A stretch of 64,000 bases of DNA from Gammaproteobacteria bacterium (GCA_963666765.1 OY762933.1:129814-193813), one strand, 5' to 3'. Positions 2,029 to 34,138 are shown, counted from the first letter of the stretch. Translations and numbers: made by a program. Notes: generated by a model from the sequence alone, not told the origin.

Positions 2029-2052
2029 GGTTGTCGTGTTCCTTTGCTTGTC

Positions 2053-3892: not shown

Positions 3893-3950
3893 TCCGATCG
3901 GCGGGTGGCGGGGTTGTGGCGCCCCGCGGCCCAACGGGCGGACGGGACGA

Positions 3951-8904: not shown

Positions 8905-9450
8905 TTACGTTTCCCTGAGCCGGGGCCTGAGCTCGGCCAGGTTGCAGGGGCGGGTGCGGGCGTCGAGCTGGGCCTCGATGAGCTTGTCCCAGCCGGTGGC
9001 CACGGCGTTGCGCGAACCCGGCAGGCAGAAGATGAAGGTGCCGTTGGCCAGGCCCGCCAGGCAGCGCGATTGCAGCGTTGACGTGCCGATGTCCTCGTAG
9101 GACAGCACCCGGAACATCTCGCCGAAACCCTCGATCTCCTTGTCGAGCAGCGGTTCTACGGCTTCGGGCGTTCCGTCGCGCCCGGTAAGGCCGGTGCCGC
9201 CTGTAGTGATGACGGCGTCGATGTCCTCATCGGCGATCCACTGCGACACGACTGCACGGATGCGGTAGCGGTGGTCCGGTTCCAGCAGGCGCTGGTGCAG
9301 TTTGTGACCGGCGCCCGCGATGCGCTCCACCAGAAGCGCGCCGGAATCGTCCGTTTCCAGCGTGCGGCTGTCCGAAATCGTCAGCACCGCGATGCTCAGC
9401 GGCAGAAAGGTGTCCGGCTTCTCGCCCAAGGTCGCGCCCTCCGTGATCAC
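8905..9450 (-). CDS. moaB: molybdenum cofactor biosynthesis protein B
   Basis: 181 aa. Near-colinear with E. coli MoaB as I recall it ([50 protein letters not shown]). GTG start overlaps the higA stop. Confidence 0.9.
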
Positions 9451-11231: not shown

Positions 11232-11299
11232 CCTCGGGAACGAAGGCGTCCATGCAAGGGGGTGGGCGCGCGGCGCTCGGGCTGGTAGGCTACCGGCCC

Positions 11300-12634: not shown

Positions 12635-14590
12635 TCAGTCGGCGCGTTCGACGCGCTCCTGCACGTCTGTGTCCGGCGGCCGCGGCTGGGTCGCCCGGAG
12701 TTCCTCAGCTTCCGCTTCGTCCACAATCCCGCTGGACAGTGCGAAGTCGATGTACTCGTCGGTATTCTGCGCGCCCAGCGGCACCGGGCGCTCCTCCCCC
12801 AGCACCGGCGGCGCCGGCGGGCCGTCGTAGCCGCTCAACTGGTAGCCGGCGCTGTCTTCCGAGTGATAGGCGCCCAGCGTCGGGATATTGTCCTTGTCCG
12901 GATACAGCACCGCCGCGGCGCCCCCGTATCCGGCGAACCGGCCCGCGTTGCGGTAGATGAACCAGACTGCGCCGTCGCGCGTGGTCGTGGTCTTGAGCGA
13001 GTCGGAACGGGTCGGGATGGGGTAATGGGTGAAGGTGTCGGCCTCCTGGTCGTACATGGTCAGGTAGTTGTCGTTGGCGGCCCAGATGTTGTCGTTGACG
13101 TCCGCTTCGGCGTTATACGAGGCGGCGTACGGAACGCCCATCTTGCGCCGGAACACCTCGCCGGTTTCAGGATTCAGCCGATACAGGATGGCGTTGTCGA
13201 AGGCGCGGTTGCCCCAGGTGGAGGTCCAGATCATGCCCTTGGAGTCTACGCCCAGCCGGCGTATCGACGAGGTGGCGTCGTCCTCGACCACGGGGTAGTG
13301 CCGGAACTCCTCGGTTTCGGGATCGAAACGCGACACGCCGCCGTTGTGGTAGTCGGAGAACCACACGTGGTCCTTGTGGTCGACGATGATCCCGTAGGGG
13401 CGGCTGCGCATGACCGGGACTTCCCAGTAGACGATCGAGTCCGTCGCGCGGTCCCATTTGCCGAGTGCGCCGCCGGGGAGCAATGAAAGCCAGAGGTTGC
13501 CCTTCGAATCGAAGATCTGCGTGTTGCTGCCCAGCAGCGGATCGTCGGCCACCCAATGATCCACCTTGCCGGTTGCGGGATCGAGACGGCGCACGACGTC
13601 GCCGGAATACCACACCGTGCCGTCGGTCTGGTCCACGACGATGCCGTGGCCTCCACCGTGGCCTTCGAAGGCGGTCTGTTCGCCGGTGCGCGGGTTGAAC
13701 TTCACGATGCAGCAGGCGGTGTAGGCAATCCACACGTTGCCGTCGAGGTCAAAGTCCACCTGGTGCGGCCAGGGCCAGACCTCGTACTCGTCGGACTCGC
13801 GGTAGATGTACTCGACGAACATGGCCTTCTTCAGCGCCTCGTAATCGAGTTCGGGTTCGCGCGTGAGCTGCACCACCACCGGAGGACGGTCCGCGGGAAA
13901 GGTCTCGGCGAGGTAGTCGACCAGGATGTCCCGGTCCTCCGGCGGCAGGAATTTCGGATCGAAATATGAAGCCTTGCCGGGCCGGCCGAATGCGGGGCCC
14001 TGGTACATGCGGTCCACCACGACTTCCCAGGCCTGCCGGTCCTTCGGCGCCCGCGAGCCCGGATACGCGCGCGAAAAGTCGTTGTATGAGAGCAGCTGAA
14101 TCGTGTGGCAGCCGTGGCAGGCGCGTTCGAGAATGTCGCGCCCCGGCCCCGGCGGATAGACCTCGTCGTAGGGCAGAATCTCGGCGCCGGGGTAGTTCAT
14201 GCCGCCGACGTAATCGACCACCGGGCCCACGCCCGTCAGTGAGAAATCGAGTTCCGCCGCATCGCCGGGTCCGATGTCGATGCTTACCGTCTGGCTGTCG
14301 AATCCCTCCAGCTGATCGACCGCCCGGCGTATCGTCACGTCGTAGCGGCCCGGGATCATCTTGACCGCGCGGTATTCGCCGTCCACGACGAACACGGTGT
14401 AGGCGAGGTCCTTGTCGGTGTTGTAGGCGTACACCACCGGGAGCAAACCGTCGACGGTTCCCGCGACTTTGCCGGATAACTGCCCGAGTCCGTCGTCTGC
14501 GGAGGCGGCAGGCGCTTCGGGACCGGAGGGCTCTCCGGAACAGCCGGCGAAAAGAAGCAGGCAAAGCCCCGCTGCAACACAATTACGCAT
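12635..14590 (-). CDS. lipoprotein: CarboxypepD_reg-like Ig domain + CXXCH haem-c motif + Vgb/streptogramin-lyase-like beta-propeller (paralog A)
   Basis: Lipobox MRNCVAAGLCLLLFAGC (ATG 14590). Ig-like block GKVAGTVDG...VVDGEYRAVKMIPGRYDVTI. CHGCH at 14105..14119. Six to seven blade repeats of the type D..G.VW......L.R.DP.TGE. About 80% identical by eye to 15718..17673. Confidence 0.8.
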   Translation of the reverse strand: MRNCVAAGLCLLLFAGCSGEPSGPEAPAASADDGLGQLSGKVAGTVDGLLPVVYAYNTDKDLAYTVFVVDGEYRAVKMIPGRYDVTIRRAVDQLEGFDSQTVSIDIGPGDAAELDFSLTGVGPVVDYVGGMNYPGAEILPYDEVYPPGPGRDILERACHGCHTIQLLSYNDFSRAYPGSRAPKDRQAWEVVVDRMYQGPAFGRPGKASYFDPKFLPPEDRDILVDYLAETFPADRPPVVVQLTREPELDYEALKKAMFVEYIYRESDEYEVWPWPHQVDFDLDGNVWIAYTACCIVKFNPRTGEQTAFEGHGGGHGIVVDQTDGTVWYSGDVVRRLDPATGKVDHWVADDPLLGSNTQIFDSKGNLWLSLLPGGALGKWDRATDSIVYWEVPVMRSRPYGIIVDHKDHVWFSDYHNGGVSRFDPETEEFRHYPVVEDDATSSIRRLGVDSKGMIWTSTWGNRAFDNAILYRLNPETGEVFRRKMGVPYAASYNAEADVNDNIWAANDNYLTMYDQEADTFTHYPIPTRSDSLKTTTTRDGAVWFIYRNAGRFAGYGGAAAVLYPDKDNIPTLGAYHSEDSAGYQLSGYDGPPAPPVLGEERPVPLGAQNTDEYIDFALSSGIVDEAEAEELRATQPRPPDTDVQERVERAD

Positions 14591-14635
14591 AGTCAGGCAC
14601 CACAATCCAGCCAGAGCCCCAAGTGTATGCGCTCT

Positions 14636-14707
14636 CTCCGGGAGGAAGGCGCCCCCCTGGCAGTGAGGGCGCCCCCCGAGGGAGGGCGTCCTGCCCTCCT
14701 GGACGGG
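14636..14707. repeat. REP-like element (copy 3) in a divergent promoter region
   Basis: CTCCGGGAGGAAGGCGCC...GAGGGAGGGCGTCCTGCCCTCC with hairpin GGAGGGC-N5-GCCCTCC. Confidence 0.65.
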
Positions 14708-14809
14708 CCTCCAGGTTGACAGCCGTGCCGCTCATGCCACCATTGAGCACAATTCGGTACCGGCGTCCCTGAGTGCCGGCCGGCAAGAGCGGGAGAGGGA
14801 GTCCTGGCC

Positions 14810-15721
14810 ATGTGGCAACCGAAGCTCATCATGATGAACGGCAAACTCATGCCGTTGGAGGACGCGCGCCTGCACCCGCTTTCCCTTGCCGTCACTTATG
14901 CGGCAACGGTTTTCGAGGGCGTGCGCGCCTACCATCTGCCCGACAGCGGCCAGTTCGCGTTGTTCCGGCTGGACGACCACCTGCGCCGCCTGCAGGTGGG
15001 AATGAAGCTGATGCGGTTCGACGGCGGCTACGACGCGGAGTATCTCACCGGGTGTCTCGCGCGGCTGATCCGGGCCAACGAGCCTGATTCCGACGCCTAT
15101 ATCCGGCTGCTCGCCTATATCGAGGGGACCGGATTGCTGGCAACGACCGGCCCGATCGGCTTCACGGCCGCCGTCATGCCGAGGAAGACCCCGGAGTTCG
15201 CCGCCACCGGTATGAGCCTGGGCGTGAGTTCCTGGCAGCGCCTGGCGGACAATGCCAGCCCGCCGCGGATCAAGACTACGGCCAATTACGTGAATGCCCG
15301 GCTGGCTGCCCACCAGGCCAGGGCGGACGGCTACGACGGCGCGCTGATGCTTACGCCGGATGGAAGAGTATCCGAGGCGCCGATCGCATGCTTCTTCATG
15401 GTTCGCGACGGGAAACTGATCACGCCGAGCACCGACAGCAACATCCTGGAGAGCATCACCCGGGACACGATCCTCACGCGCTACCTGGAGCTCACGGGCG
15501 AACCCGCCGAGGTGCGCACGATCGATCGCAGCGAGCTCTATTTCGCCGAGGAGGCCTTCCTGTGCGGCACCGGCCAGGAAATTCTGCCGGTCACTTCAAT
15601 CGACCGCCTGCCGGTCGGCGATGGCAAGGTCGGTCCTTTAACCGACAGGCTGCGGCAGGACTACTTCGACCTGGTTCGGGCCAGGACAAGCGACCACCCG
15701 GAGTGGCGAACGCTCATTTAG
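14810..15721 (+). CDS. class IV aminotransferase (branched-chain/D-amino-acid type)
   Basis: 303 aa. MNGKLMPLEDARLHPLSLAVTYAATVFEGVRAY and ...EAFLCGTGQEILPVTSID fit fold-type IV PLP enzymes. The start could be 14831. Confidence 0.85.
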   Translation: MWQPKLIMMNGKLMPLEDARLHPLSLAVTYAATVFEGVRAYHLPDSGQFALFRLDDHLRRLQVGMKLMRFDGGYDAEYLTGCLARLIRANEPDSDAYIRLLAYIEGTGLLATTGPIGFTAAVMPRKTPEFAATGMSLGVSSWQRLADNASPPRIKTTANYVNARLAAHQARADGYDGALMLTPDGRVSEAPIACFFMVRDGKLITPSTDSNILESITRDTILTRYLELTGEPAEVRTIDRSELYFAEEAFLCGTGQEILPVTSIDRLPVGDGKVGPLTDRLRQDYFDLVRARTSDHPEWRTLI

Positions 15722-17673
15722 TCGGCCCGCTCCAGGCGCTCGTCCACCGCATCCGCGCCAAGCTGGCTCGCTCTCATGACAGCCGCCTGCGCTTCGTCGA
15801 GCAGGCCTTTCTCCAGCGCGAAGTCGATGTACTCATCGGCATTCAGGGCGCCCAGGGGCACCGGCCGTTCCTCGCCCAGGACCGGGGGAGACGGCGGCCC
15901 GCTGTAGCCGCTCAACTGGTAGCCGGCGCTGGTCTCGGAGTGATAGGCGCCGAGCGTCGGAATATTGTCCATGTCGGTATACAGGACCGTTATATTGCCG
16001 CCGTAGCCCGCGTACTTGCCGGCATTGCGATAGAAGAACCAGATCCCGTCGTCGCGCGTGATCGTGGTCTTGAGCGTGTCCGAGCGCACCGGGATGGGAT
16101 AGTGGGTGAACTCGTCGGCTACCTGGTCGTATTTGCTCAGGTAATTGTCGTTGGCGGCCCAGATGTTGTCCTGGCTGTCGGCTTCCGCGTTGTAGGTGGC
16201 CGCATAGGGCACGTCCATCTTGCGCCGGAAGACTTCACCCGTGTCCGGGTCCACCCGGTACAGAATCGCGTTGTCGAACCCGCGGTTGCCCCAGGTGCCG
16301 GCCCAGATCATGCCCCTGGAATCGACGCCCAGGCGGCGTATCGAGGTCGCGGCGTCATCCTCGACCAGGGGATAGTGCCGGAATTCCTCGGTCTCGGGAT
16401 CGAAACGCGTAACGCCGCCGTTGTGATAGTCGGCGAACCACACCTTGTCCTTGTGGTCGACGATGATGCCGTACGGGCGGCTGCGCAGCACCGGCACCTC
16501 CCAATAGACGATGGAGTCGGTTGCCCGGTCCCACTTGCCGAGTGCGCCGCCGCCAAGCAGCGAAAGCCAGAGATTGCCCTTGGAATCGAAAATCTGCGTA
16601 TTGCTGCCCAGCGCACGGTCCTCGGCCACCCAGTGGTCCACCTTGCCGGTCTTCGGATCGAGATGGCGAACGACATCTCCTGAATACCAGACCGTGCCGT
16701 CAGTCTGGTCCACCGCTATGCCGTGTCCGCCGCCGTGGCCTTCGAACGCCGTCTGTTCGCCGGTGCGCGGATCGAACTTCACGATGCAGCAGGCGGTGTA
16801 GGCGAGCCAGACGTTGCCGTCCAGGTCGAAGTCCACCTGGTGCGCCCACGGCCAGACATCGTATTCGTCCGACTCGTGGTAGATGTACTCGATGTACATC
16901 GCCTTCTTGAGCGCCTCGAGGTCCAGTTCAGGCTCCCGGGTGAGCTGCACCACCACAGGCGGCCGGTCCTCCGGAAAATGTTCCGCCAGGTAGTCGACCA
17001 GTATGTCGCGGTCCTCGGGCGGCAGGTATTTCGGATCCATCAGTGTCGCCTTGCCCAGGCGGCCGAATCCCGGTCCCTTGTGCATCCGATCGACACTCAC
17101 CGCCCAGGCGGCCTTGTTCTTCGGCGCCCGCCCGCCCGAATAGGCGCGCGGGTAGTTGTAGGGGATGAAATTGACGTTGTGACAGCCGTGGCAGGTGCGC
17201 TCGAGGATCTCACGGCCCCGACCCGGCGGATAGACCTCGTCGTAGGGGAGTATTTCGGCATTGGGATAGTCCACGCCCCCGACGTAGTCGACAATCGGAC
17301 CAACGCCCGTCAGCGAGAAATCCACTTCGGCCTCATCGCCGGGCCCCAGGTCGATGCTGACCGTCTGCGGGTCGAAGCCTTCCAGCTGGTCGATCGCCGG
17401 CCGTATCGTCACGTCGTAGCTGCCGGGAATCATCTTGACGGCCCGGTATTCGCCGTCCACCACGAACACCGTATAGGCGAGGTCCTTGTCGTTATTGAAG
17501 GCATAGACCACCGGGAGCAGTCCCTCAATGGTCCCTTCCACATTTCCGGACAGGCGCGCCAGCCCTTCGTCCTCGGCGGATGCGGGCCCGCCGGGGCCGG
17601 ACGACTGTTCGGAGCAGCCGATCAACGCCAGCAGGCAGAACCCCGCTGTCGTCAGTCTCGTGAGTGAATTCAT
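15718..17673 (-). CDS. lipoprotein: Ig-like + CXXCH + Vgb-like beta-propeller (paralog B)
   Basis: 651 aa. Lipobox FCLLALIGC. CHGCH at 17179..17193. Colinear with paralog A. Its stop overlaps the stop of the class IV aminotransferase (TTAG). Confidence 0.8.
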   Translation of the reverse strand: MNSLTRLTTAGFCLLALIGCSEQSSGPGGPASAEDEGLARLSGNVEGTIEGLLPVVYAFNNDKDLAYTVFVVDGEYRAVKMIPGSYDVTIRPAIDQLEGFDPQTVSIDLGPGDEAEVDFSLTGVGPIVDYVGGVDYPNAEILPYDEVYPPGRGREILERTCHGCHNVNFIPYNYPRAYSGGRAPKNKAAWAVSVDRMHKGPGFGRLGKATLMDPKYLPPEDRDILVDYLAEHFPEDRPPVVVQLTREPELDLEALKKAMYIEYIYHESDEYDVWPWAHQVDFDLDGNVWLAYTACCIVKFDPRTGEQTAFEGHGGGHGIAVDQTDGTVWYSGDVVRHLDPKTGKVDHWVAEDRALGSNTQIFDSKGNLWLSLLGGGALGKWDRATDSIVYWEVPVLRSRPYGIIVDHKDKVWFADYHNGGVTRFDPETEEFRHYPLVEDDAATSIRRLGVDSRGMIWAGTWGNRGFDNAILYRVDPDTGEVFRRKMDVPYAATYNAEADSQDNIWAANDNYLSKYDQVADEFTHYPIPVRSDTLKTTITRDDGIWFFYRNAGKYAGYGGNITVLYTDMDNIPTLGAYHSETSAGYQLSGYSGPPSPPVLGEERPVPLGALNADEYIDFALEKGLLDEAQAAVMRASQLGADAVDERLERAD

Positions 17674-17724
17674 TGTTCGGTCGCTCCGCTTGTAGTGTCG
17701 CCAGCCCAGTGTAACCCCGGGGTG

Positions 17725-19203
17725 CTACCGGCGAGTGTAGGGGTTGGCCACGTCGCCGCCGGAGTAATACCAGACGCTCTTTGTCTGCAGGTATTCCTTT
17801 ATCGCCTCCATCCCGTTCTCCCGGCCCAGGCCGCTGGCCTTGTAGCCGCCGAACGGCGTCGTGTAGCTGGTGGAGCGATAGGTGTTGACCCACACGGTCC
17901 CGGCTTCCAGGCGCTCCGACACCTTGATCGCCCGCCGCAGGCTCTCCGTCCACACGCCGGCCGCCAGTCCGTAGTTGACGTCGTTGGCGATGGCGATCGC
18001 TTCCTCGTCGTCTGTGAAGCGAAGCACCGCGAGGACCGGGCCGAACACTTCTTCCTGGGCAATGCGCATGTCGTTGGTGACGTCGGCAAAAACAGTCGGC
18101 TGCACGAACAGGCCCTGGTTCCCATCCGGGGCCGGAACGCCGGCGCCGCCCAACACCAGGCGAGCGCCTTCGTTCTTCGCAATTCCGATGTAATCCAGGA
18201 TCTTGCGATATTGAGGCTCGGTCGTAATCGGGCCCACCTGCGTTTCCGGCGACATGGGGTCGCCGATGCGCGCGTTGCCGGCAAGACCGACAAGGCGCTC
18301 AAGAAACTCATCGTGAATGGAATCGTGCAAGAGGAGCCGGGAGCCCGCGATGCAGGTCTGGCCGCTGGCGGCGAAAATTCCGCTTATGGCGCCGTTTACC
18401 GCCTGGTCGAGATTGGCGTCCTCGAAGACGATGTTCGCCGACTTGCCGCCCAGTTCCAGCGTGACTCTCTTGAACCCGGGGGCCGCGTCGGTATTGACCC
18501 GTGCGCCGGCGGCCTCACCGCCGGTGAACGCGATTTTCCGCACCTTTCCGTGGCGCACCAGCGGTTCGCCGACTTCTTCGCCCAGTCCCGTGACCACGTT
18601 GATCACGCCCTTGGGAATGCCTGCCTGCTCCGCAAGCGCGGCGAACTCCAGCGTCGAGGCCGAGGTGTATTCGGATGGCTTGACCACGATGGTGTTGCCC
18701 GCGGCCAGCGCCGGCGCGGCTTTCCAGGCCAGCAGCAGCAAGGGCGAGTTCCAGGGCGTGATGCAGGCGCACACGCCGAGCGGCTCGTGGCGGGTCAGAT
18801 TGAGCACATCGGGCTTGTCGATGGGCGGCGCCGAACCTTCGATCTTGTCGGCCAGACCGCCGTAATAGTGGAACCACTGGGCCATGTAGCGGCACTGATT
18901 GAGGACCTCGGCATGCAGCTTGCCGTTGTCCCGCACCTCGATTTCCGCCAGCCGTTCTGCCTCGCCGGTGAGGATTTCCGCAAACTTTCTGAGCTTGAGT
19001 CCGCGCTGTGTGGGATTCAGCGCGGGCCACTCGCCTTGCCTGAACGCCTGGTCGGCGGCTTCCACAGCGGCCTCGACATCGGCGCCGCCGGCGCGCGGAA
19101 TGCGGGCCCAGGCTTGGCCCGTGTACGGGTTCACCGTCTCCATCCACTCCTCTGAGAGCGGATCGGCCCACGCGCCGTCGATGTACAACTGGTATTCCTG
19201 CAT
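17725..19203 (-). CDS. NAD(P)-dependent aldehyde dehydrogenase
   Basis: 492 aa. Catalytic motifs LELGGKSANIVF and GQTCIAGSR. Confidence 0.92.
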   Translation of the reverse strand: MQEYQLYIDGAWADPLSEEWMETVNPYTGQAWARIPRAGGADVEAAVEAADQAFRQGEWPALNPTQRGLKLRKFAEILTGEAERLAEIEVRDNGKLHAEVLNQCRYMAQWFHYYGGLADKIEGSAPPIDKPDVLNLTRHEPLGVCACITPWNSPLLLLAWKAAPALAAGNTIVVKPSEYTSASTLEFAALAEQAGIPKGVINVVTGLGEEVGEPLVRHGKVRKIAFTGGEAAGARVNTDAAPGFKRVTLELGGKSANIVFEDANLDQAVNGAISGIFAASGQTCIAGSRLLLHDSIHDEFLERLVGLAGNARIGDPMSPETQVGPITTEPQYRKILDYIGIAKNEGARLVLGGAGVPAPDGNQGLFVQPTVFADVTNDMRIAQEEVFGPVLAVLRFTDDEEAIAIANDVNYGLAAGVWTESLRRAIKVSERLEAGTVWVNTYRSTSYTTPFGGYKASGLGRENGMEAIKEYLQTKSVWYYSGGDVANPYTRR

Positions 19204-19263
19204 CCTGAAACCGTCCGAGCATCAAACAGTCCATAATACAGACAGCAGCTTCCGGAAACCCGC

Positions 19264-20925
19264 TTGCCAGCAGAACGATTTTCAGCGCTCCAGCTCGGGG
19301 TTGCATGGCGCCGCTTCAACGGTCTCATGGACGAAACCGCCCAGACCTTCGTGAGGACTTCGTTCTCGTCGGTGGTGCGCGACAACTGGGACCTGGCGGT
19401 GGGGTTGATGGACAGCCGGGGCCGCCAGTTCGCGCAATCGTCGCGCAGTATTCCCTCGTTCATCGGCACCATGCCGCGCACCCTGGCGGTGATGCTGCGG
19501 CGTTATCCCGCGTCGTCGCTCAATCCGGGGGATGTCCTGATTTCCAACGACGGCTATCACGGCACCGGCCATCTCAACGACATCACCATGGTTCGTCCGA
19601 TTTTCCGGCGCAAGCGCCTGATCTGCTTTATCGGCAGCGTATTCCACACGGTGGACATCGGCGGCGCGCCGTCCGTCACCGCGCGCGATTCCCATGAAGA
19701 AGGCCTGACCATACCGGTTTGCAAGATCGTGCGCGATGGGGCGGAAAACGAGGATGTCATTGCTTTCATTACCGAGAACCTGCGCGCCCCGGAAGAAACG
19801 CTGGGCGATATCCGGGCCCAGTTCGCCGCCTACGAAATGGGCCAGGCGCGTCTGCTGCAGATTCTCGATGATGAGCGCATCGATGACCTCGATGCGCTGG
19901 TGGAAGAGATCCTCGACCGCTCCGAGAACGCCATGCGCCGGGCGATCGAGGCGGTTCCCGACGGCGTATATCGCGACAGTATCCGGGTTGACGGGTTTGA
20001 GGAACCGCTGACCATCCGCTGCGAAGTCCGCATCGAGGGCGGCAGTCTCAGCGTCGATTACGCCGGCACTTCTCCGCAGATCAGCCGGCCGATCAATTCG
20101 GCCATGAATTTCACCCGCGCATACAGCGCCTATGCGATCAAGTGCGCCTTCGATCCGACCACGCCCAACAACGACGGTTCGTTCCGGCCGGTCACGATCA
20201 CGGCCCCCGAAGGCTGCCTTGTCAACCCGCTGCGCCCGGCCCCGATCTGGGCGCGGCACCTGTCCGGCCACTACCTTCCGCCGGTGATCTTCAGCGCTCT
20301 TTCGCAAGTGATGCCCGAGCGAGTGATCGCCGATTGCGGTTCGCCGCTGTGGAACGTCTATTTCTCGGGGCGGCACGGCGACGGGCGTCGTTTCGTGAAG
20401 ATGTTCTTCATGAACGGAGGGCACGGCGCGCGGCCCCACCAGGATGGCCCGGCCTGCCTGAGCTTTCCCAGCAACGTGGCGACCGTGCCGGTGGAACACT
20501 TCGAGAACAGCGTGCCGCTGCTGATCACCGAGAAGTCCTTGATCCCGGATTCGGGCGGCGCCGGGCGCTATCGCGGCGGCCCGGCGCAGCGGGTGGCCTT
20601 CAGGGTCACGTCCGAACATCCCGTCACGATGACCATACGTCACGAACGGGTGCGGTTTCCGCCGCGCGGCCTGCTGGGCGGCTCGCCGGGCTCGCCCGGC
20701 CGCGATTACGTCAACGGCGAGCGGATCGCGGCAAAGGTGCGCATGGATCTTGAGCCGGAAGACCTCGTGACCTTCGACACGCCGGGTGGTGGCGGCCTGG
20801 GTCCGCCGCGGGAGCGCGAAGCGGCCAGGCTCGAAGCGGACCTTGTGAGCGGAGTGGTGACCCCGGCTGGTGCGTCGGCCGCGTACGGTTCAGGAGCGGA
20901 AGCCGGGGAAGAGCAGGGTGGCTGA
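19264..20925 (+). CDS. hyuB: hydantoinase B/oxoprolinase-family protein (cluster 1)
   Basis: 553 aa from a TTG start (start uncertain). Typical HyuB blocks (SSVVRDNWDLAVGLMD, GDVLISNDGYHGTGHLNDITMVRPIF, GGGGLGPPRER). Confidence 0.85.
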   Translation: MPAERFSALQLGVAWRRFNGLMDETAQTFVRTSFSSVVRDNWDLAVGLMDSRGRQFAQSSRSIPSFIGTMPRTLAVMLRRYPASSLNPGDVLISNDGYHGTGHLNDITMVRPIFRRKRLICFIGSVFHTVDIGGAPSVTARDSHEEGLTIPVCKIVRDGAENEDVIAFITENLRAPEETLGDIRAQFAAYEMGQARLLQILDDERIDDLDALVEEILDRSENAMRRAIEAVPDGVYRDSIRVDGFEEPLTIRCEVRIEGGSLSVDYAGTSPQISRPINSAMNFTRAYSAYAIKCAFDPTTPNNDGSFRPVTITAPEGCLVNPLRPAPIWARHLSGHYLPPVIFSALSQVMPERVIADCGSPLWNVYFSGRHGDGRRFVKMFFMNGGHGARPHQDGPACLSFPSNVATVPVEHFENSVPLLITEKSLIPDSGGAGRYRGGPAQRVAFRVTSEHPVTMTIRHERVRFPPRGLLGGSPGSPGRDYVNGERIAAKVRMDLEPEDLVTFDTPGGGGLGPPREREAARLEADLVSGVVTPAGASAAYGSGAEAGEEQGG

Positions 20926-23011: not shown

Positions 23012-23078
23012 GCAGTCGCGCCGCTGCTGCAACTGCCCTCCGGCATCGGCCAGGAGCCTCACGGCAATCGGCGGACTG

Positions 23079-24698: not shown

Positions 24699-24751
24699 CG
24701 TCGTGACAGGAGGCCAGGCGCCGGAGCGCCGGCAGTACCAGGAGCACCCGA

Positions 24752-25948
24752 ATGGAAAATGGGCATTTTCAATTGCCGCCCGATATTCAGGAGATCGTCG
24801 ATCTTGCGAAACGCATCGTCAGGAACGAGCTGATCCCGCTGGAGTCCGAGTTTCTGCCCCATCCGGCGCACGCCTTCGGCATCAAGGAAACGACCAACCT
24901 GAAAAGGGTCTTCGGGCCCGACGTGGTGCAGCGCCTGGTGGACATTTCGCGCGATACTGGCCTGTGGTATCTCATGGTGCCGGAGGAGCATGGCGGCTCG
25001 GGACTGTCGATGCTTGCTCAGATCGCCATTCTCGAGCAATTCAACTACACGGCGGTGCCGTTTCCGTTCGCGAATGTCGCCAACATCCTCTATCAGTGCG
25101 AGGGCGACCAGGTTGACCGCTTCCTGAAGCCGGTCATCGAGGGCGATATGACGACCTGCTTTGCCCAGACTGAGCCTAACGCGGGCTCCGACCCGGGCGG
25201 CATGATGCAGACGCGGGCCGTGAAGGACGGCAACGACTGGGTGCTGAACGGCACCAAGATGTGGATTTCGGGGGCCGCGGAATCCGACATGATCATGGTG
25301 CAGGCGGTGACCGACGCGGAAAAACGGCAGCGTGGCGGTATCACGATGTTCCTGGTCAAGCGCGACAATCCCGGCATGCTGGTCGAGGAGCCGGGGATCA
25401 AGACCTGGCTCGGACCGCATGCCTCGCAGTACATCGTCCACTTCGAGGATTGCCGGGTGCCGCAGTCCGACGTACTCGGCGAAGTCGGCAACGGTTTCCG
25501 GCTCGGGCAGCGCTGGCTGACGATCCACGACCGGCTCCTGCGCGGCCCCTATGCGCTGGGCAAGATGCAGCGCGCGCTGGACATGTCGATCGAGTGGTCG
25601 AAGAACCGGGTGACCTTCGGCAAGCCGCTGTCCGAACGTCAGGCGATTCAATGGCACCTCGTGGACATGTATATCGACCTGGAGGCGCTGCGTTCCCTGA
25701 CCTACCAGATGGCGGCTCGCGCCGATGCCGGCGAGGACATACGCACCGAGGCCGGCATGGTGAAACTCACCTCGATGGTGTGGGGCGCGCGGACGCTCGA
25801 CAAGGCCATCCAGATTCATGGCGCAATGGGCGAATCGCTGGAGTTGCCGCTCACGCTTTTCTACCGCTACCTGCGCCACGGACAGATCGGCGGCGGCGCC
25901 AACGAGATCCAGCGCATGCAGATTGCCCGCAAGCTGTTGCGCGGATAG
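24752..25948 (+). CDS. acyl-CoA dehydrogenase family protein
   Basis: 398 aa. FAQTEPNAGSDPGGM, WISGA and C-terminal GGGANEIQRMQIARKLL are typical of ACADs. Confidence 0.9.
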   Translation: MENGHFQLPPDIQEIVDLAKRIVRNELIPLESEFLPHPAHAFGIKETTNLKRVFGPDVVQRLVDISRDTGLWYLMVPEEHGGSGLSMLAQIAILEQFNYTAVPFPFANVANILYQCEGDQVDRFLKPVIEGDMTTCFAQTEPNAGSDPGGMMQTRAVKDGNDWVLNGTKMWISGAAESDMIMVQAVTDAEKRQRGGITMFLVKRDNPGMLVEEPGIKTWLGPHASQYIVHFEDCRVPQSDVLGEVGNGFRLGQRWLTIHDRLLRGPYALGKMQRALDMSIEWSKNRVTFGKPLSERQAIQWHLVDMYIDLEALRSLTYQMAARADAGEDIRTEAGMVKLTSMVWGARTLDKAIQIHGAMGESLELPLTLFYRYLRHGQIGGGANEIQRMQIARKLLRG

Positions 25949-25975
25949 CGGCGCGACGCGACACCAGTTTCGATA

Positions 25976-26974
25976 ATGAGTTCCCCGGCTCGATGCGCCC
26001 GCGTCCGCGTCCTGCGCCGGACCTTCGCCATCCCGATCGTTGCGGCGGCATTGCTGTTGGTGGCTTGTGCCGGGGACACGGGCAGCGACGAGTACCCGTC
26101 CAGGCCCGTCACCATCATCGTGCCCTATGCGCCCGGAGGCGGCGGCGACACGTTCACGCGCGCCATTGCCGCGCAGGCCGCGAATATCCTCGGCGTAAAG
26201 ATCTTCGTGGAGAACCGGACCGGCGGGGGCGGCACCATCGGGGTCGGTTCCGTGGCGCGCGCTGCCGCCGACGGTTACACGCTCGCGTTCATTTCGACCA
26301 GCCCGGTCGTGATGGCGCCGAATTTTCTCGACGTCCCCTACGACCCGGTGCAGGACCTTACCTACCTGACGCAATACGTCGTGTCCGTGCACCCGGTGCT
26401 GGTGGGCGGAGGGTCTCCGTTTGAATCGTTCTCGGCATTGCTCGAGTTCGGGAGGGCCAATCCCGGCCGGCTGCGGTGGTCCAGCGCGGGCATCAACGGC
26501 GCGCCCCATGTGGCGACGCTGGCGGCATTCCGCCAGGAGGGCGTGGCTGCCACGTTCGTTCCGATGCAGGGTTCGTCCGAGGTCCTGGCGGGCCTGCTGG
26601 GCGGAACCATCGACATGGGCGTCATCTCCGACTATTCCGGCGCGCTGGCGGCCGGCGACGTCCGCGTGCTGGCTGAAATCGGCCCCGAGCCGATAGCCGA
26701 ACTGCCGTCGGTGCCGACCTACGAACAACTCGGCTATCCGCTGGCGCCCACCATATTCTTCGGGCTGGCCGGACCGGCGGAACTGCCGGACGATGTGGTC
26801 GCCCGGTGGGACGAAGTCATACGCATTGTTACGGCGTCGGCGGCTTTTTCCGATATTGCAGGCCGATTGAACGGCAAGGTGGCCTACCTGGGCCACGAGG
26901 AATTCGAGCGCCACGTGCTGGGCGACATTGCGGCTGCGCGTGAGGCCCTGCGCTCTCTGGATGAAGGCGAGTGA
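25976..26974 (+). CDS. tctC: tripartite tricarboxylate transporter substrate-binding protein (Bug/TctC family)
   Basis: 332 aa. YPSRPVTIIVPYAPGGGGDTFTRAIA is the Bug-family signature. Followed by TctB and TctA. Confidence 0.9.
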   Translation: MSSPARCARVRVLRRTFAIPIVAAALLLVACAGDTGSDEYPSRPVTIIVPYAPGGGGDTFTRAIAAQAANILGVKIFVENRTGGGGTIGVGSVARAAADGYTLAFISTSPVVMAPNFLDVPYDPVQDLTYLTQYVVSVHPVLVGGGSPFESFSALLEFGRANPGRLRWSSAGINGAPHVATLAAFRQEGVAATFVPMQGSSEVLAGLLGGTIDMGVISDYSGALAAGDVRVLAEIGPEPIAELPSVPTYEQLGYPLAPTIFFGLAGPAELPDDVVARWDEVIRIVTASAAFSDIAGRLNGKVAYLGHEEFERHVLGDIAAAREALRSLDEGE

Positions 26975-27462
26975 TGCGGGTCCGCCCGGAATCCATCGCA
27001 CTGGGTGGTCTGCTGGCCGCAGCCGTGGTGTTCGGGCTCTGGATCCTGCCGCTGGGCATCGGCCTGAGCGCCGCCGGCGAGGGCACGGGCCTGTCTCCTC
27101 GCTTCATGCCGCAACTTGCGGCTGTGGCAATGGTTGTGGCGCTCGCCTGGGGCCTGTACCGCTCGTTCGTCGCGCCGCAGGCTGCCGATGGGCCGAATGG
27201 GGATCGAGAGGGTCTTGCACGAATACCGTTCGGCGCGTGGCTGATTTGCCTGGCGTTTGCCGTGTTTGGTTTCGACCTGGCGGGTTTCTATCCTGGCGGC
27301 ATCTGCATGGCGATCCTGCTGACGCTCCTGCTCGGTGAGCGAAGGCCCTGGATCATCGTGCTGTTTCCGGCCCTGCTGCTGGCGGCGATCTACCTGCTGT
27401 TCGAGTTTGCCCTGAACGTGCGTTTGCCCCGATCCGGCCTGATACCGGGCCTGCCGATCTAG
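26971..27462 (+). CDS. tctB: tripartite tricarboxylate transporter small membrane subunit
   Basis: 163-aa hydrophobic protein between tctC and tctA. Start overlaps the tctC stop. Confidence 0.8.
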   Translation: MMRVRPESIALGGLLAAAVVFGLWILPLGIGLSAAGEGTGLSPRFMPQLAAVAMVVALAWGLYRSFVAPQAADGPNGDREGLARIPFGAWLICLAFAVFGFDLAGFYPGGICMAILLTLLLGERRPWIIVLFPALLLAAIYLLFEFALNVRLPRSGLIPGLPI

Positions 27463-27476
27463 CAACGGTCGCCACC

Positions 27477-29006
27477 GTGGAAAACGTCCTCGAAGGCATT
27501 TCGCTGGCTTTCAACTTCAACGCGCTGGCGGGAATTCTTCTCGGCATCGTGCTTGGCCAGATCCTCGGCTCCATTCCCGGACTGACCGCGGCGATGGCCG
27601 TGGCCCTCTTGGTGCCGTTCAGTTTCTATTTCGACCCCTGGGTGGGCATCCCGATGATGCTGGCCATGTTCAAGGGATCCCTGTTCGGGTCGAGCATACC
27701 GGCCATCCTGCTTCGGACCCCGGGAACGCCGGCCGCGGCCGCCACGGTCATCGACGGCAATCCCCTGGCGCGCCAGGGCAAGGGCGGCAAGGCGATGCAC
27801 ACGGTGCTGTTCGCCTCGGTATTCGGCGATTCCTTCTCCGACATCGTGCTGATCTTCGGCGCCGGCACACTGGCGGCGGTAGCAATCCGCTTTGGGCCCT
27901 CCGAGTACGCAATCCTGGTGTTCTTTGCGCTGTTGAGCCTGATATCGCTGCACCGCGGCAGTTCCTGGAAAGGGATCGTGTCGATTACCGCCGGCGTGCT
28001 GCTCGCGTGTGTCGGGCTCGACCCCATCACCGGCACGCCGCGCCTGACATTCGGCAACGCGGAGTTGTTCGACGGGATCGGCCTGATCCCCATGCTGATC
28101 GGGTTTCTGGCAATCTCGGAAGTCTTCCGGCAACTGGAGCAGCCCGTCAGGCGTCTTGGAGAACGAACCATGAAGTTCTCGTCCCGGCCGGAAGACAACC
28201 ACTTGTCCGGCAAGGAACGGCGCGCGCTGCTGCCCACGCTTTTTCGCAGCTCGGCAATCGGCACCATCACGGGCGCCCTGCCCGGGCTCGGCTCTACGGT
28301 CGCGGCGTTCATCGCCTATAACGAGGCGCGAAGGACTGCGGCCAGGCCGGAAGAATTCGGGAAAGGGTCCCTGCACGGCATTGCGGCGCCGGAGGCGGCC
28401 AACAATGCGGTGGGCGGATCCAACCTGATTCCACTGCTGGCTTTCGGCATTCCAGGCGACGTGGCGGCCGCGCTCATACTCGGCGCGCTACTGATTCAGG
28501 GGATCACGCCGGGCCCGATCGCCTTTCGCGACAACCCGGCGCCGATCTACGCGATTTTCGTCGCCATGCTGCTGGCCAACCTGGTCAATTACCTGGTCGG
28601 CCTGGGCTTCATACCGCTGGCCAAGAAGATGGTGTCGGTGCCGAAGCGGCTGCTGTTTCCGGCCGTGCTGGTGCTGGCGTCCGCCGGCGCCTACGCGATG
28701 CGCGGCTCGCTGTTCGACGTCCAACTGATGTTCGTGTTCGGGCTGGTCGGCTGGGTGATGGCGAAGTACAAGTTCCCTTCGGTCCTGCTGCTGATCGGCT
28801 TCATTCTTACGCCGATTTTCGAGCGTTCGATCCGCCAGACGCTGATCCTGGTCGAAGCGGCGGATGGCTGGCTTGCTTTTGTGGCCAGCCGGCCCGTACT
28901 GATGATCCTGCTGGGCGCTCTGGCAATTCTGGCCGTCGTCGTTATCCGCCAGCGACTGAAGATGAATCGCTACCAGCTGCCTCAGGAACCCGCCGACAGC
29001 AGCTGA
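27477..29006 (+). CDS. tctA: tripartite tricarboxylate transporter large permease
   Basis: 509-aa polytopic membrane protein. GSIPGLTAAMAVALLVP and GALPGLGSTVAAFIAY are TctA-type motifs. Confidence 0.9.
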   Translation: MENVLEGISLAFNFNALAGILLGIVLGQILGSIPGLTAAMAVALLVPFSFYFDPWVGIPMMLAMFKGSLFGSSIPAILLRTPGTPAAAATVIDGNPLARQGKGGKAMHTVLFASVFGDSFSDIVLIFGAGTLAAVAIRFGPSEYAILVFFALLSLISLHRGSSWKGIVSITAGVLLACVGLDPITGTPRLTFGNAELFDGIGLIPMLIGFLAISEVFRQLEQPVRRLGERTMKFSSRPEDNHLSGKERRALLPTLFRSSAIGTITGALPGLGSTVAAFIAYNEARRTAARPEEFGKGSLHGIAAPEAANNAVGGSNLIPLLAFGIPGDVAAALILGALLIQGITPGPIAFRDNPAPIYAIFVAMLLANLVNYLVGLGFIPLAKKMVSVPKRLLFPAVLVLASAGAYAMRGSLFDVQLMFVFGLVGWVMAKYKFPSVLLLIGFILTPIFERSIRQTLILVEAADGWLAFVASRPVLMILLGALAILAVVVIRQRLKMNRYQLPQEPADSS

Positions 29007-29037
29007 CGATAGAGGCGAGAGGAAACGCCGACGGGCG

Positions 29038-29613
29038 CTAGTCGAGCTCGATCTCGGCGCTCGTCAGTATGGCGGCCAGCTTGCGCATGTTCTCAAGGCT
29101 GCGCTGCTGGTCTTCCTCGTTGGCCGCGATGCAGCAATCGGAAATCACGCTGACCGCGAAATCACGGTCATGAGCTTCCCGGGCCGTGGATTCCACGACC
29201 ATATCGGTGGCGACGCCGGCAAGGTAAACATGCGTTACGCCCATGTTGCGCAGTGACAGTTCCATCGGCGTGGCGTGAAAACTGCCGACCCGGTGCTTGG
29301 TAATGACCAGTTCCTCGCCCTCGGGTGCGACTTCATCGACGAATTCGCCGCCCCAGCCGCTGAGATCGAAAGCGCCGAATTCGTGCGCCTGTCCCATCAG
29401 CGGGGATCCCTTCGGACTCTGCGCGTAGCCCGGATAGAAACCGACCCGCACGTGAACCACGGGGAGGCCGGCTGCACGAAACCGGTCCTGGACGGTGCGC
29501 ACGCGCGCCAGGGTGCCATGCTCGGCATCGAAGGCCGCGTAGCCCTTGCCCGAAACCTTGCCTTCGGAGTGGACGATATCGTTCTCAAAATCAAGACAGA
29601 TCAGGGCTTTCAT
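29038..29613 (-). CDS. isochorismatase-family hydrolase (nucleophile Cys apparently absent)
   Basis: 191 aa. MKALICLDFENDIV..., ITKHRVGSF, GVATDMVVESTAREA. The usual Cys in the TD.CV motif reads Val. Confidence 0.8.
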   Translation of the reverse strand: MKALICLDFENDIVHSEGKVSGKGYAAFDAEHGTLARVRTVQDRFRAAGLPVVHVRVGFYPGYAQSPKGSPLMGQAHEFGAFDLSGWGGEFVDEVAPEGEELVITKHRVGSFHATPMELSLRNMGVTHVYLAGVATDMVVESTAREAHDRDFAVSVISDCCIAANEEDQQRSLENMRKLAAILTSAEIELD

Positions 29614-29784
29614 CGCAATGTCCTTGCAGGGCCAAGGGCAGGGAATTGCCCATCGTCCCGGGTGAATTGAGAGCGCATTCTAGGTGGGCCGGCAATCCTT
29701 TACAAACCCCAATGCGCGTGCGACCATGCGGAAAGCCTCAGGGACGCGCAGGCTGCATTATCACTACCTTGGGGAAATCGGGCG

Positions 29785-31617
29785 ATGTCATCATCCAACT
29801 GGAAATTCTTCCGCGGTGCACGCCGATTTGTCGTGTCAGCCGTGTTGATCATGTCGCTCGGCGCCGATTGGGCGCTAGGCGCACCCGCAATTCCGGGCAC
29901 GGCCACGCTCACCGGAACGGTATCGGCCGAAACGCCGTTCACCGCGGCGCAGGTTTATGCCAAGAACCTCGACCGGAACATGCTGTACACGGTGTTTACC
30001 CACAACGGAAAGTACCGCGCTCCCAACCTGTTGCCCGGCGGCTACCGGATCTGGGCCGAGAAAGACGGCCTGACGTCGCGGCACGAGATGCTGAGGATCC
30101 AGGGCGAGGGTGATATCGAGCTTGACCTCGCGATGGCCCCGGGACCGGACAATCCGCTGACCCTGAAGGACAGTTCCAAGCCGGGGCCGCAGTTCGGCGG
30201 CGTCGGCGGCGACGCGCAGCTGGTTTCCTATGACGAAATGTATCCGCCCGGGCCGGGCAGGGACCTGGCCGAGCCTTCCTGCCTGACCTGCCACGGCCAT
30301 TCCTTCCTGCCGGCGCACCGCATGGGACGTCCGCAGTGGCACGCCATGGTCGGCCTCATGATGGATCCCAGCGGGCCGTTCGCCGATCCCGATTCGGCCC
30401 GCAGCATTACCGACGAGGAGCACGACATCCTCGCGGATTACCTGACGGACAACTTCGGCCCGGACAGCCCGGCCAGGGTATTGCGCCTGGACGTCGAATA
30501 TCCGCTGGACGAAGAAACGCTGGCCTCGGCCATGTTCATCGAGTATCTGACTCCCCTGCATCCGGGTGCCGACCTGTCCCTGAGGTCCGCCAACGAGCCC
30601 TTCAAGCATCGCCTGCACCGGCCGATGATCGACAACGACGGGAATATCTGGGGTTCGAACAGCCTGATCGGCTTGAGCCGCGTCGATCCGCGCACAGGGC
30701 AGTGGAGCCACTTTCCCATCGGCTATGACGAGAACAATCCCGAAACGGACATGTACGGCAAGAAGAAGGGTGATCCGGATTCGGTCTGGTCGTACATCTT
30801 TCCGCATGACCTGACCATAGACCGCAACGGCCATGTGTTCTGGGCGGAGTTCCAGGGGCAGCACCTGGGGCGGCTCGACCCCGAGACAGGGAAGATCGAC
30901 CGCTACCCGATGGATCCCGAAGGCGTGGTGGTGGACGAGCGGGGCGTGGTGGGCAACATCCGCGGCCACAGCCCGCACATGGCCGAAAACGGCGACGTGT
31001 GGTTCACCGCGATTCGCGGCAACAAGCTCGGCAAATGGGACCACGAGACCGGAGGCATCACGCTGTGGGAAATTCCCACGCCGCACTCCTTCCCGTACGG
31101 AATTGAAGTGGACCAGCAGGGCTTCGTCTGGTTTGCCGAGCTGTTCGGCTGCGCCGTCGCCAGTTTCGATCCGGAAACCGAAGAATTCACGGAATACCCG
31201 TCGCTGATGAAGCCGTGCGCGATCAACCGTCTGGCGGCGGACTCGAAAGGCACGATCTGGTACTCGGTGATCAGTTCCGGAAGACTGGGCCGGCTGGATC
31301 CGGTGACCGGGGAGCAAACGGAATACGACGTCCTGCCCTTTACCCCGGTCAAGGCATCAATGCCCTACGGCATCGTGGCCGATCAGGATGACAAGATCTG
31401 GTTCGGGGATGGCGGACTGGGCGGCGCCCTGGTCCGGTTCGACCCGGACACGGAAGCCTTCACCTATTTCCCGGAGCCCCGCCAGGCCGACAATCCCAAC
31501 CTGGACGTCACCCGGGAAGGCGCCATCATTTTCTCGACCCGCTCAAACAACCAGGCGGCGCTGGGAATCTTCTATCCCGACGTCTCGAAGATGACCGGCT
31601 ACGGCGCCTACCGCTGA
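29785..31617 (+). CDS. secreted Ig-like + CXXCH + Vgb-like beta-propeller protein (paralog C, divergent)
   Basis: 610 aa. Sec-type signal. CLTCH at 30280..30294. Blades such as WFTAIRGNKLGKWDHETGGITLWEIPTPHSFPYGIEVDQQGFVWFAE. Same architecture as paralogs A and B. Confidence 0.8.
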   Translation: MSSSNWKFFRGARRFVVSAVLIMSLGADWALGAPAIPGTATLTGTVSAETPFTAAQVYAKNLDRNMLYTVFTHNGKYRAPNLLPGGYRIWAEKDGLTSRHEMLRIQGEGDIELDLAMAPGPDNPLTLKDSSKPGPQFGGVGGDAQLVSYDEMYPPGPGRDLAEPSCLTCHGHSFLPAHRMGRPQWHAMVGLMMDPSGPFADPDSARSITDEEHDILADYLTDNFGPDSPARVLRLDVEYPLDEETLASAMFIEYLTPLHPGADLSLRSANEPFKHRLHRPMIDNDGNIWGSNSLIGLSRVDPRTGQWSHFPIGYDENNPETDMYGKKKGDPDSVWSYIFPHDLTIDRNGHVFWAEFQGQHLGRLDPETGKIDRYPMDPEGVVVDERGVVGNIRGHSPHMAENGDVWFTAIRGNKLGKWDHETGGITLWEIPTPHSFPYGIEVDQQGFVWFAELFGCAVASFDPETEEFTEYPSLMKPCAINRLAADSKGTIWYSVISSGRLGRLDPVTGEQTEYDVLPFTPVKASMPYGIVADQDDKIWFGDGGLGGALVRFDPDTEAFTYFPEPRQADNPNLDVTREGAIIFSTRSNNQAALGIFYPDVSKMTGYGAYR

Positions 31618-34014: not shown

Positions 34015-34138
34015 GGCAGACCCTCCGGCGGCGACTGGGCCGCGGTGCGCAGCGCAAGTCGCAAGGCCTCGGGCAAATCTGTCACAACCCGGTCCGGCAC
34101 TTCCTGAGGGGCCGCCGGAAAAAGAAGCCACACATTTA

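Follow-up and report, generated by a model that had tools for sequence, protein, structure and literature searches.

Exported Vgb-fold propeller proteins with a probable haem c module in a conserved gene cluster of Gammaproteobacteria

What might be the function of exported proteins in which an immunoglobulin (Ig)-like domain, a c-type haem motif and a beta-propeller are joined in a single chain? This question is raised by a 64,000-nucleotide stretch of DNA from a gammaproteobacterium (GCA_963666765.1 OY762933.1:129814-193813; hereafter the window), in which three such proteins, P0001, P0002 and P0003, are encoded near aminotransferases, an aldehyde dehydrogenase and a TonB-dependent receptor. 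A preliminary description of the window had noticed the three genes and proposed that their products are extracytoplasmic redox enzymes. Here, the observation has been confirmed and its interpretation partly supported: the family appears to vary the theme of periplasmic enzymes that combine haem c with a propeller, in a so far uncharacterised form built on the fold of virginiamycin B lyase (Vgb). We give about an even chance to the reading that the three proteins are periplasmic electron-transferring enzymes acting on a substrate imported by the receptor.

Architecture of the three proteins and their haem module

The reading frames of the three genes (Table 1) are open and intact; in the frame of P0001, a TTG at position 14605 would also be permitted as a start. 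Their third-position GC content (0.82-0.85) is usual for genes of the host genome (65% GC), a single contig of 2.95 Mb that is 97% complete and has exactly these three copies of the family. P0001 and P0002, judged by eye to be about 80% identical, share 78% identity over 652 aligned residues, and the greater divergence noticed for P0003 is borne out by 31% identity to P0002 with nearly the full lengths aligned (E 6e-74). All three share one architecture, consisting of an export signal, an Ig domain, a CXXCH module with a conserved Met and a propeller. The motifs CHGCH (P0001), CHGCH (P0002) and CLTCH (P0003) are present as first reported, followed by DRMYQG or DRMHKG, and by GLMMD in P0003. 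The lipoboxes of P0001 (LFAGC, then Ser) and P0002 (LIGC, then Ser) both lack Asp at +2, and the cleavable leader of P0003 is of the signal-peptidase-I type (ALG/AP); from these signals, P0001 and P0002 would be outer-membrane-type lipoproteins and P0003 a soluble periplasmic protein.

An AlphaFold2 model of P0002, built from a 40-sequence alignment (pLDDT 87.9, pTM 0.88), has a beta-sandwich formed by residues 39-116, a helical module spanning 144-232, seven four-stranded blades made up of residues 259-565, and a helical tail. The propeller ring is shut by strand 259-265 and contains seven four-stranded sheets, not six. Foldseek searches with this model placed the seven-bladed Vgb structures at the top (2qc5, 2z2n and 2z2o; TMt 0.81-0.86, rmsd ~2.8 Å, 16-19% identity), so that of the six or seven blades originally envisaged, seven can be retained and six dismissed. 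Next by fold came the ligand-sensing propellers of Bacteroides hybrid two-component systems, and the best PDB relatives by sequence belong to the same two groups. The Vgb_lyase family PF24684 was matched above its cut-off of 50 bits by P0003 (89.5) and below it by P0001 (45.5) and P0002 (40.9). In a separate model, the N-terminal half of P0002 reached a pLDDT of 86.6 and matched the transthyretin-like regulatory domain of carboxypeptidase D (5aq0, TMt 0.69 to the isolated domain; also 2nsm and 1qmu). The assignment of this domain to the CarboxypepD_reg type is thus upheld by its fold, with the profile PF13620 remaining sub-threshold (20.8-26.5 bits, 21.3 for P0002; cut-off 32.3). Domain searches and structure prediction, which had been proposed as checks, therefore recovered an Ig domain, a candidate mono-haem c module and a Vgb-like propeller.

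The CXXCH motif is invariant in three alignments (40/40, 18/18 and 25/25 sequences). Among the 40 members, whose identities range from 27 to 89%, there is no exception to C161, C164, H165 or W190, and at least 90% retain M197, which agrees with the single c-type motif and downstream Met recognised initially; the Met is invariant in two independent alignments of the domain (18 and 25 sequences). Helices of the P0002 model span residues 152-163, 187-198 and 219-232, and CXXCH ends the first long one. Scores for the cytochrome c family PF00034 were 15-18 bits on the full proteins and 22.5 on the isolated P0002 domain (cut-off 21.3), and a scan of isolated domains from 18 members gave matches to PF13442 in 16 (all below the cut-off of 27), to PF00034 in 13 and to PF09098 in 5. 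A profile of the haem domain matched SorB of the SorAB sulfite:cytochrome c oxidoreductase (2blf_B, E 0.004) and the alpha-subunit haem domain of the quinohaemoprotein amine dehydrogenase QHNDH (1jmx, E 0.019), with the CXXCH, Trp and Met aligned to their counterparts and the Met falling on that of their 'RM'/'KM' motif. SorB is the best sequence relative of the module (E 2.5e-4 for P0003), but it forms a separate subunit, of 81 aa, in a molybdenum enzyme, family members score 12-21 bits against the cut-off of 93 for NF052246, and, unlike in SorAB, a SorA-like partner is absent from the cluster. A Foldseek search with the Ig and cytochrome half returned no cytochrome match, the Ig domain having dominated the search. 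The host genome encodes CcmH (above cut-off) as well as a haem-copper oxidase, and therefore both haem maturation and a respiratory sink should be available. It is thus likely, judging from these conserved residues, that the module carries a covalent haem c, probably His/Met-ligated, and is class-I-like.

The redox idea gains support from an additional cytochrome c. In six of nine operon-linked orthologues of P0002 (L028, L029, L030, L039, L063 and L104; P2 orthologues hereafter), a second CXXCH is found in an added C-terminal domain that matches PF13442/PF00034, is inserted just before the last few tail residues and contains a 'GPNLxG'-type motif, which we take to be that of c2-type cytochromes c. 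The Candidatus Foliamicus proteins have a haem-free helical tail at this position, and no credible gene for a small cytochrome c was found in the window. Because a second cytochrome c has been fused to the protein, a relationship of the Rosetta-stone type, onward electron transfer to a soluble class I cytochrome c is suggested; by analogy with quinohaemoprotein dehydrogenases, this argues that the built-in haem would hand electrons to such a carrier.

The conserved operon and the history of the family

In three loci (L028, L029 and L030), P2 orthologues that are 58-65% identical lie within one co-directional operon, in the order TonB receptor, class IV aminotransferase, aldehyde dehydrogenase, P2, HyuB, HyuA, thiamine diphosphate (ThDP) enzyme, acyl-CoA dehydrogenase and, at the far end, a P0003-like (P3-type) gene. 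The slot before P3 is occupied either by TctCBA and an isochorismatase or by a dienelactone hydrolase, and an IclR regulator stands at the head of the operon in two of the three. After 80 loci from species-representative genomes had been fetched and the window proteins mapped onto them, the operon had been detected altogether in nine loci outside the genus Candidatus Foliamicus (the above three together with L035, L036, L037, L039, L063 and L104), whose hosts include Woeseiaceae (L036), Porticoccaceae (L037), Acidibacter (L063) and Steroidobacteraceae (L104). P2 orthologues are placed between the aldehyde dehydrogenase and HyuB, and P3-type genes open or close the operon in L028, L030, L036, L039, L063 and L104. 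The window has the same gene content in a rearranged form: the aldehyde dehydrogenase and P0002 genes are divergent from those for HyuB, HyuA, the ThDP enzyme, the acyl-CoA dehydrogenase and TctCBA, and P0003 lies between the isochorismatase and receptor genes.

Within Candidatus Foliamicus, HyuB is encoded in 10 of the 22 genomes, and in each of these a P0002-type gene lies at a distance of 1.6-6 kb; of the 12 that lack HyuB, G009 alone has a full P0002-type gene and G032 a fragment. The tie to neighbouring genes that had been proposed thus holds for P0002 and P0003, which occur with the same gene set in nine loci, and does not extend to the class III aminotransferase, which accompanies only P0001 and only in this genus. 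The adjacent aminotransferases are divided accordingly: the conserved operon includes the class IV enzyme, and the class III enzyme is not part of it.

The class III aminotransferase passes the NCBIfam cut-off for AptA (NF052567, 693 bits vs 500), and its convergent pairing with a P0001-type gene recurs in L032, L034, L038 and L041, all within the genus. The pair (window 11252-14590; L034 10001-13300; L041 1-2800) persists in genomes of the genus without the Hyu cluster, and P0001-type genes are also present in the Hyu-cluster-free members G005, G007, G013, G014 and G015. This suggests that P0001 and AptA constitute a second, separate module using a duplicated haem-propeller.

Such a duplication is consistent with a quick maximum-likelihood tree with SH-aLRT support only, in which P0001-type and P0002-type proteins are sister clades in one group (support 99) and the P3 type is set apart by a very long branch. 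Because of this long branch, P2 and P3 are regarded as ancient paralogues that accompany each other in the operon, and P0001 as a recent lineage-specific duplicate of P0002. The threefold amplification perceived in the window therefore includes one recent duplication, that of P0001 and P0002, and the idea of a local threefold expansion has to be abandoned in favour of an ancient P2/P3 pair. In another Candidatus Foliamicus locus (L033 9927-14200; G012:C1:2383255-2387489), a P0002-type and a P0001-type gene form a direct tandem followed by the class IV aminotransferase, an arrangement that probably represents the state right after duplication.

The family is very large: a full HMMER scan of 1.8 billion cluster representatives yielded 73 matches at E<=1e-30 and 2,508 at E<=1e-10, many of the latter being generic propellers. 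The best 150 matches include 70 full-length representatives (500-800 aa), and CXXCH is present in 58 of these. Two word-indexed searches each returned hundreds of full-length relatives. Their sources are marine Gammaproteobacteria (Woeseiaceae, Steroidobacteraceae) and Acidobacteriota, and their database labels vary between 'hypothetical', 'virginiamycin B lyase' and 'streptogramin lyase/mono/diheme cytochrome c family protein'. Taken as a whole, the family is common in Alphaproteobacteria and soil Acidobacteriota as well as in marine Gammaproteobacteria. The preliminary description knew of no characterised member, and none came to light in PDB, Pfam, NCBIfam or the literature that could be searched. 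Nothing of relevance was obtained from literature searches directed at the family, the genus or the operon.

The cytoplasmic partners give some indication of the compound that is processed. HyuA and HyuB belong to the ATP-dependent cyclic-amide hydrolase family: the best solved relative of HyuA is the N-methylhydantoinase 7hk5 (E 2e-121), an enzyme of the 5-oxoprolinase/caprolactamase type comes second, and the nearest NCBIfam models of both proteins are caprolactamase subunits, far below cut-off. The ThDP enzyme is acetolactate-synthase-like, and the class IV enzyme is nearest to branched-chain aminotransferases, slightly below the equivalog cut-offs. Caprolactam catabolism proceeds from an ATP-dependent lactamase through a transaminase to an aldehyde dehydrogenase, and the arginine transaminase pathway from a transaminase through a ThDP decarboxylase to an aldehyde dehydrogenase. 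Caprolactam-like, creatinine/N-methylhydantoin-like and arginine-transaminase-like schemes were compared with the cluster and none was adopted, each of them fitting some of the enzymes and none passing a family cut-off. A reasonable guess is that the cytoplasmic substrate is the carboxylate of a cyclic amide or imide, whose ring is opened before deamination; more broadly, the substrate class may possibly be that of cyclic N-containing carboxylates.

The gene context also bears on a different explanation, according to which the proteins are non-catalytic accessories of the receptor: the lipoproteins would capture the substrate of the TonB receptor or hand it over, and the haem would act as a sensor of redox state or would adjust it, as in the reduction of a metal chelate. 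The lipoprotein anchors of P0001 and P0002 without Asp at +2 would suit such a role, TonB receptors adjoin family genes in many unrelated contexts, and the top NCBIfam match of the receptor in the window is a siderophore-receptor subfamily (below cut-off). The similarity to the ligand-binding propellers of BT4663 and BT4673 (4a2l, 4a2m, 3ott, 3va6) is also close, BT4663 (4a2l) being the best PDB match of P0002 by sequence (E 5.9e-15); these propellers are likewise extracytoplasmic and bind small carbohydrate ligands, but they are tandem, fused to kinase and regulator modules, non-catalytic and haem-free. We nevertheless consider an accessory role distinctly unlikely, given that many orthologues, like P0003, have a leader of the signal-peptidase-I type and are soluble, that the P2 gene sits among cytoplasmic catabolic genes in compact operons, that metal-uptake genes are not conserved in the cluster and that a fused class I cytochrome c favours sustained electron flow over binding.

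The propeller pocket and alternative functions

Since Vgb is the closest structural relative, residue roles in Vgb were compiled from PDB entry titles, the HMMER alignment and PMC8916777, which locates its substrate and Mg2+ site in blades 6-7. Vgb (PDB 2z2n, 2z2o, 2z2p, 2qc5; PF24684) and the family have in common seven blades and a repeated 'P-x-G-I...D..G..W' blade signature, but Vgb is a cytoplasmic, single-domain protein of ~300 aa, whereas family proteins are exported, 610-651 aa long and equipped with Ig and cytochrome c modules. When aligned to 2z2n/2z2p by HMMER, Vgb His270 ('AEPHGI'; mutated in 2z2p, H270A) corresponds to Tyr528 of P0003 and Tyr494 of P0002, an invariant residue, and His228 to Asn481/Arg. 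Propeller repeats permit other registers, of which, among those checked, only one, rotated by two blades, gives His on adjacent blades (P0002 H278 and H317). The scores against NCBIfam models of Vgb(A)/(B) (NF000022/NF000096) do not exceed 81 bits, compared to cut-offs of 600. Because the position of the catalytic His270 is taken by an invariant Tyr, it is very unlikely that P0001, P0002 and P0003 are Vgb lyases, an argument from aligned catalytic residues that is strong but not absolute. Streptogramin lyase activity was accordingly ruled out on catalytic residues, family cut-offs and exported location. Thus, the resemblance to virginiamycin B lyase pointed out initially concerns the fold (TM 0.84-0.86) and does not carry over to the lyase chemistry, the catalytic His of Vgb not being kept.

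It may still be asked whether another hydrolytic or lyase-type reaction takes place in the propeller. A non-redox enzyme of this kind, be it a lyase, lactonase or amidase, would open or trim a cyclic compound in the periplasm, as Vgb acts on cyclic depsipeptides and SGL enzymes act on lactones, and the haem would be structural or regulatory. Vgb is the best fold match, the SGL family (PF08450) passes its cut-off in all three proteins (31-40 bits), the cytoplasmic partners (HyuAB and the isochorismatase or dienelactone hydrolases) handle cyclic amides and esters, and Vgb-fold propellers are chemically versatile, as exemplified by CylK (PMC8916777). However, the replacements of Vgb His270 by an invariant Tyr and of His228 by Asn/Arg are unfavourable to it, the SGL match covers only 41-96 of 246 model positions, or approximately one blade, and a structural haem would leave unexplained both the invariance of CXXCH and Met in proteins of 27-89% identity and the recurrent fusion of a second cytochrome c. 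We therefore regard a non-redox enzyme as unlikely. The more specific possibility of a full-length, six-bladed SMP-30/gluconolactonase fold was ruled out by the partial match and the seven blades of the model.

The propeller nonetheless has the look of a functional one. The residues at or just before the innermost strand of each P0002 blade are H278, H317, N358/T359, Y401, R446-R447, Y494 and D532, and it is at the corresponding blade positions, the start of the innermost strand, that Vgb carries its catalytic His residues. Y401, R447, Y494 and D532 are invariant in both paralogue clades, family-wide. Conservation in the P2 clade extends further to H278, to D509-N510-Y511 and to two vicinal cysteines, C295-C296, within the B-C loop of blade 1, and the P3 clade keeps H341 and H395. 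Judged by strand order, the conserved polar residues (H278, C295-C296, H317, Y401, R446/R447, Y494, D509-N510-Y511 and D532) would form a pocket on the top face of the propeller. Of 119 P2-clade sequences, at least 95% have the vicinal pair (window 16786-16791), which the P3 clade lacks; a vicinal Cys pair, or vicinal disulfide, is also a feature of PQQ alcohol dehydrogenases.

Quinohaemoprotein dehydrogenases (type II PQQ alcohol dehydrogenases; QHNDH, 1jju/1jmx) are known systems that work as the redox reading would have it, in that a periplasmic propeller and a c-type haem feed soluble cytochromes. They differ in having a PQQ-type eight-bladed propeller, which is not present in family proteins, and in the latter the haem domain is N-terminal and preceded by the Ig domain. 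No PQQ-family Pfam domain was found in the three proteins, and in the 97%-complete host genome the best candidates for pqq genes stayed below cut-off (PqqE 67 bits vs 381, PqqC 80.5 vs 240). A PQQ quinohaemoprotein was thus ruled out by the lack of a PQQ-type propeller and of detectable pqqC/pqqE. A fusion of QHNDH subunits was also ruled out: the resemblance is weak and confined to the haem domain of the alpha-subunit (PF09098 in 5/18; 1jmx E 0.019), and the QhpC/QhpD context is absent from the cluster.

The lack of a recognisable propeller cofactor, the apparent His/Met carrier type of the haem and the common use of propellers as interaction scaffolds would all fit a further alternative, a docking cytochrome, in which the proteins are electron carriers without a small-molecule substrate and the propeller is a protein-protein platform for some other redox partner in the periplasm or outer membrane. 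However, the operon conserves no further periplasmic redox enzyme that might be such a partner, and the invariant Tyr, Arg, Tyr and Asp, which appear to face the central pocket, are more suggestive of a site for small molecules; hence, a docking function seems quite improbable.

Several points have to be set against the reading as substrate-converting, electron-transferring enzymes. A six-coordinate His/Met haem is an electron carrier and not a catalytic centre, the propeller has no assignable redox cofactor and no evident metal site, and the second-best relatives by sequence and fold, the propellers of the Bacteroides hybrid two-component systems, are non-catalytic ligand sensors. The top-face placement of the conserved residues was deduced from strand order alone; covalent haem, the direction of electron flow, redox activity, catalysis by the propeller and the order of steps are all things that we infer. 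Furthermore, the genomes are related and the cluster is perhaps mobile, so the synteny counts are not independent. Members below 50% identity (in Rhodospirillaceae, Marinimicrobia and Vicinamibacterales) occur without the operon context; because this context is missing below approximately 50% identity, the operon would define the function of a subfamily and not necessarily that of the whole family.

Gene surroundings and the proposed pathway

The coordinates of the three genes, the parts of P0002 and the neighbouring genes are listed in Table 1.

Table 1. Features of the window relevant to the haem-propeller proteins (positions counted from the first nucleotide of the window)
Feature	Position	Strand	Remarks
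AptA-type omega-aminotransferase (class III)	11252-12634		convergent with P0001
P0001	12635..14590	minus	651 aa from ATG; predicted lipoprotein; putative haem c propeller; CHGCH at 14105-14119
Class IV (branched-chain type) aminotransferase	14810..15721	plus	operon member; converges on P0002; 72-80% identity in operon loci outside the genus
P0002	15718..17673	minus	651 aa; P2-type; predicted lipoprotein; putative haem c propeller
P0002, C-terminal helical tail	15721..15972	minus	residues 568-651
P0002, seven-bladed propeller	15973..16899	minus	residues 259-567
P0002, cytochrome c module	16966..17244	minus	residues 144-236; CHGCH 161-165 (17179-17193); candidate distal ligand Met197 (17083-17085)
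P0002, Ig-like beta-sandwich (CarboxypepD_reg/transthyretin-like)	17308..17559	minus	residues 39-122
P0002, lipoprotein signal peptide	17614..17673	minus	lipobox LIGC, Cys20, Ser at +2; residues 1-32 with pLDDT <50
Aldehyde dehydrogenase	17725..19203	minus	operon member; directly upstream of P0002, 51-bp gap
HyuB, HyuA, ThDP enzyme, acyl-CoA dehydrogenase, TctCBA	19264..29006	plus	conserved cytoplasmic and uptake part of the cluster; HyuAB at 19264-23011, TctC binding protein at 25976-26974
Isochorismatase-family hydrolase	29038..29613	minus	adjoins P3-type genes in L080, L085, L089, L094 and L110; near family members in L025, L026 and L029
P0003	29785..31617	plus	610 aa; P3-type paralogue, predicted soluble periplasmic; CLTCH 30280-30294; conserved Met192 at 30358-30360
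TonB-dependent receptor	31639..34131	minus	likely orthologues (41-55% identity) head the operon in other lineages

A few further observations were made in the surroundings of family genes. Another gammaproteobacterial locus (L025 1-11893) encodes a TonB receptor, two tandem P3-type proteins, a PEP-mutase/isocitrate-lyase-family protein, an isochorismatase, a glutathione S-transferase (GST) and a P2-type protein; this context differs from the Hyu operon, and the isochorismatase is again present. L031 (210-3735) has an array of four DUF1838-like genes, no more than 10 kb from a P3-type gene and beside a DMSO-reductase-type molybdoenzyme (Molybdopterin, Fer4, DmsC), and a similar DUF1838-like array is located at 18-5850 of the window, the two genomes being unrelated. 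The cluster is flanked by molybdenum-cofactor genes (MoaB-like, MoeA) and by a molybdoenzyme of the xanthine-dehydrogenase family that is accompanied by a CoxE-like VWA protein (8905-9450, 34250-35461, 51840-54236 and 55871-57184), and MoeA also adjoins the P0001-type gene in L034. The segment 57280-61861 has a GC content of 0.49-0.51, compared to ~0.65, and encodes a 549-aa HATPase_c_3 protein, a 202-aa protein without Pfam match and a 756-aa protein with a Sigma70_r4 helix-turn-helix only; it may be a foreign or defence islet. A promoter and terminator scan of 11-31 kb gave fewer matches than shuffled sequence and was thus uninformative, and an Rfam scan of the window gave no matches.

Returning to the enzymes themselves, the favoured mechanism may be outlined as follows. 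A compound would enter through the neighbouring TonB-dependent receptor and be bound in the propeller pocket of outer-membrane-anchored P2 and soluble P3, where it would undergo oxidation or another redox conversion. The haem c within the protein would deliver electrons to a cytochrome c of class I, fused in many orthologues and presumably separate here, and then to the respiratory chain and its oxidase. The product of the periplasmic step would be imported by TctCBA and broken down in the cytoplasm by the HyuAB-type ATP-dependent ring-opening amidase, the class IV aminotransferase, the ThDP enzyme, the aldehyde dehydrogenase and the acyl-CoA dehydrogenase. A bolder version of this scheme, which we put forward tentatively and think rather more likely to fail than to hold, is that the P2/P3 pair represents a new type of periplasmic haemo-dehydrogenase with a Vgb-fold propeller, free of PQQ and perhaps using a Cys-Cys plus Tyr/Arg pocket or another cofactor, which oxidises an imported cyclic nitrogen compound. 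The reaction would be the first to commit the compound to a catabolic pathway, widespread but so far undescribed, comprising the TonB-dependent receptor, P2/P3, TctCBA, HyuAB, the aminotransferase, the ThDP enzyme and the aldehyde dehydrogenase.

These results have consequences for the annotation and study of the family. The automatic label 'virginiamycin B lyase', which implies antibiotic resistance, is almost certainly wrong for its members and inflates resistome counts. The conserved gene context is new and provides the first concrete, testable functional setting for the family, and the operon supplies defined partners for ligand screening, namely HyuAB, the receptor and the binding protein TctC. 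Should the redox reading prove true, these proteins would represent a new way to wire the oxidation of periplasmic substrates into the respiratory chain.

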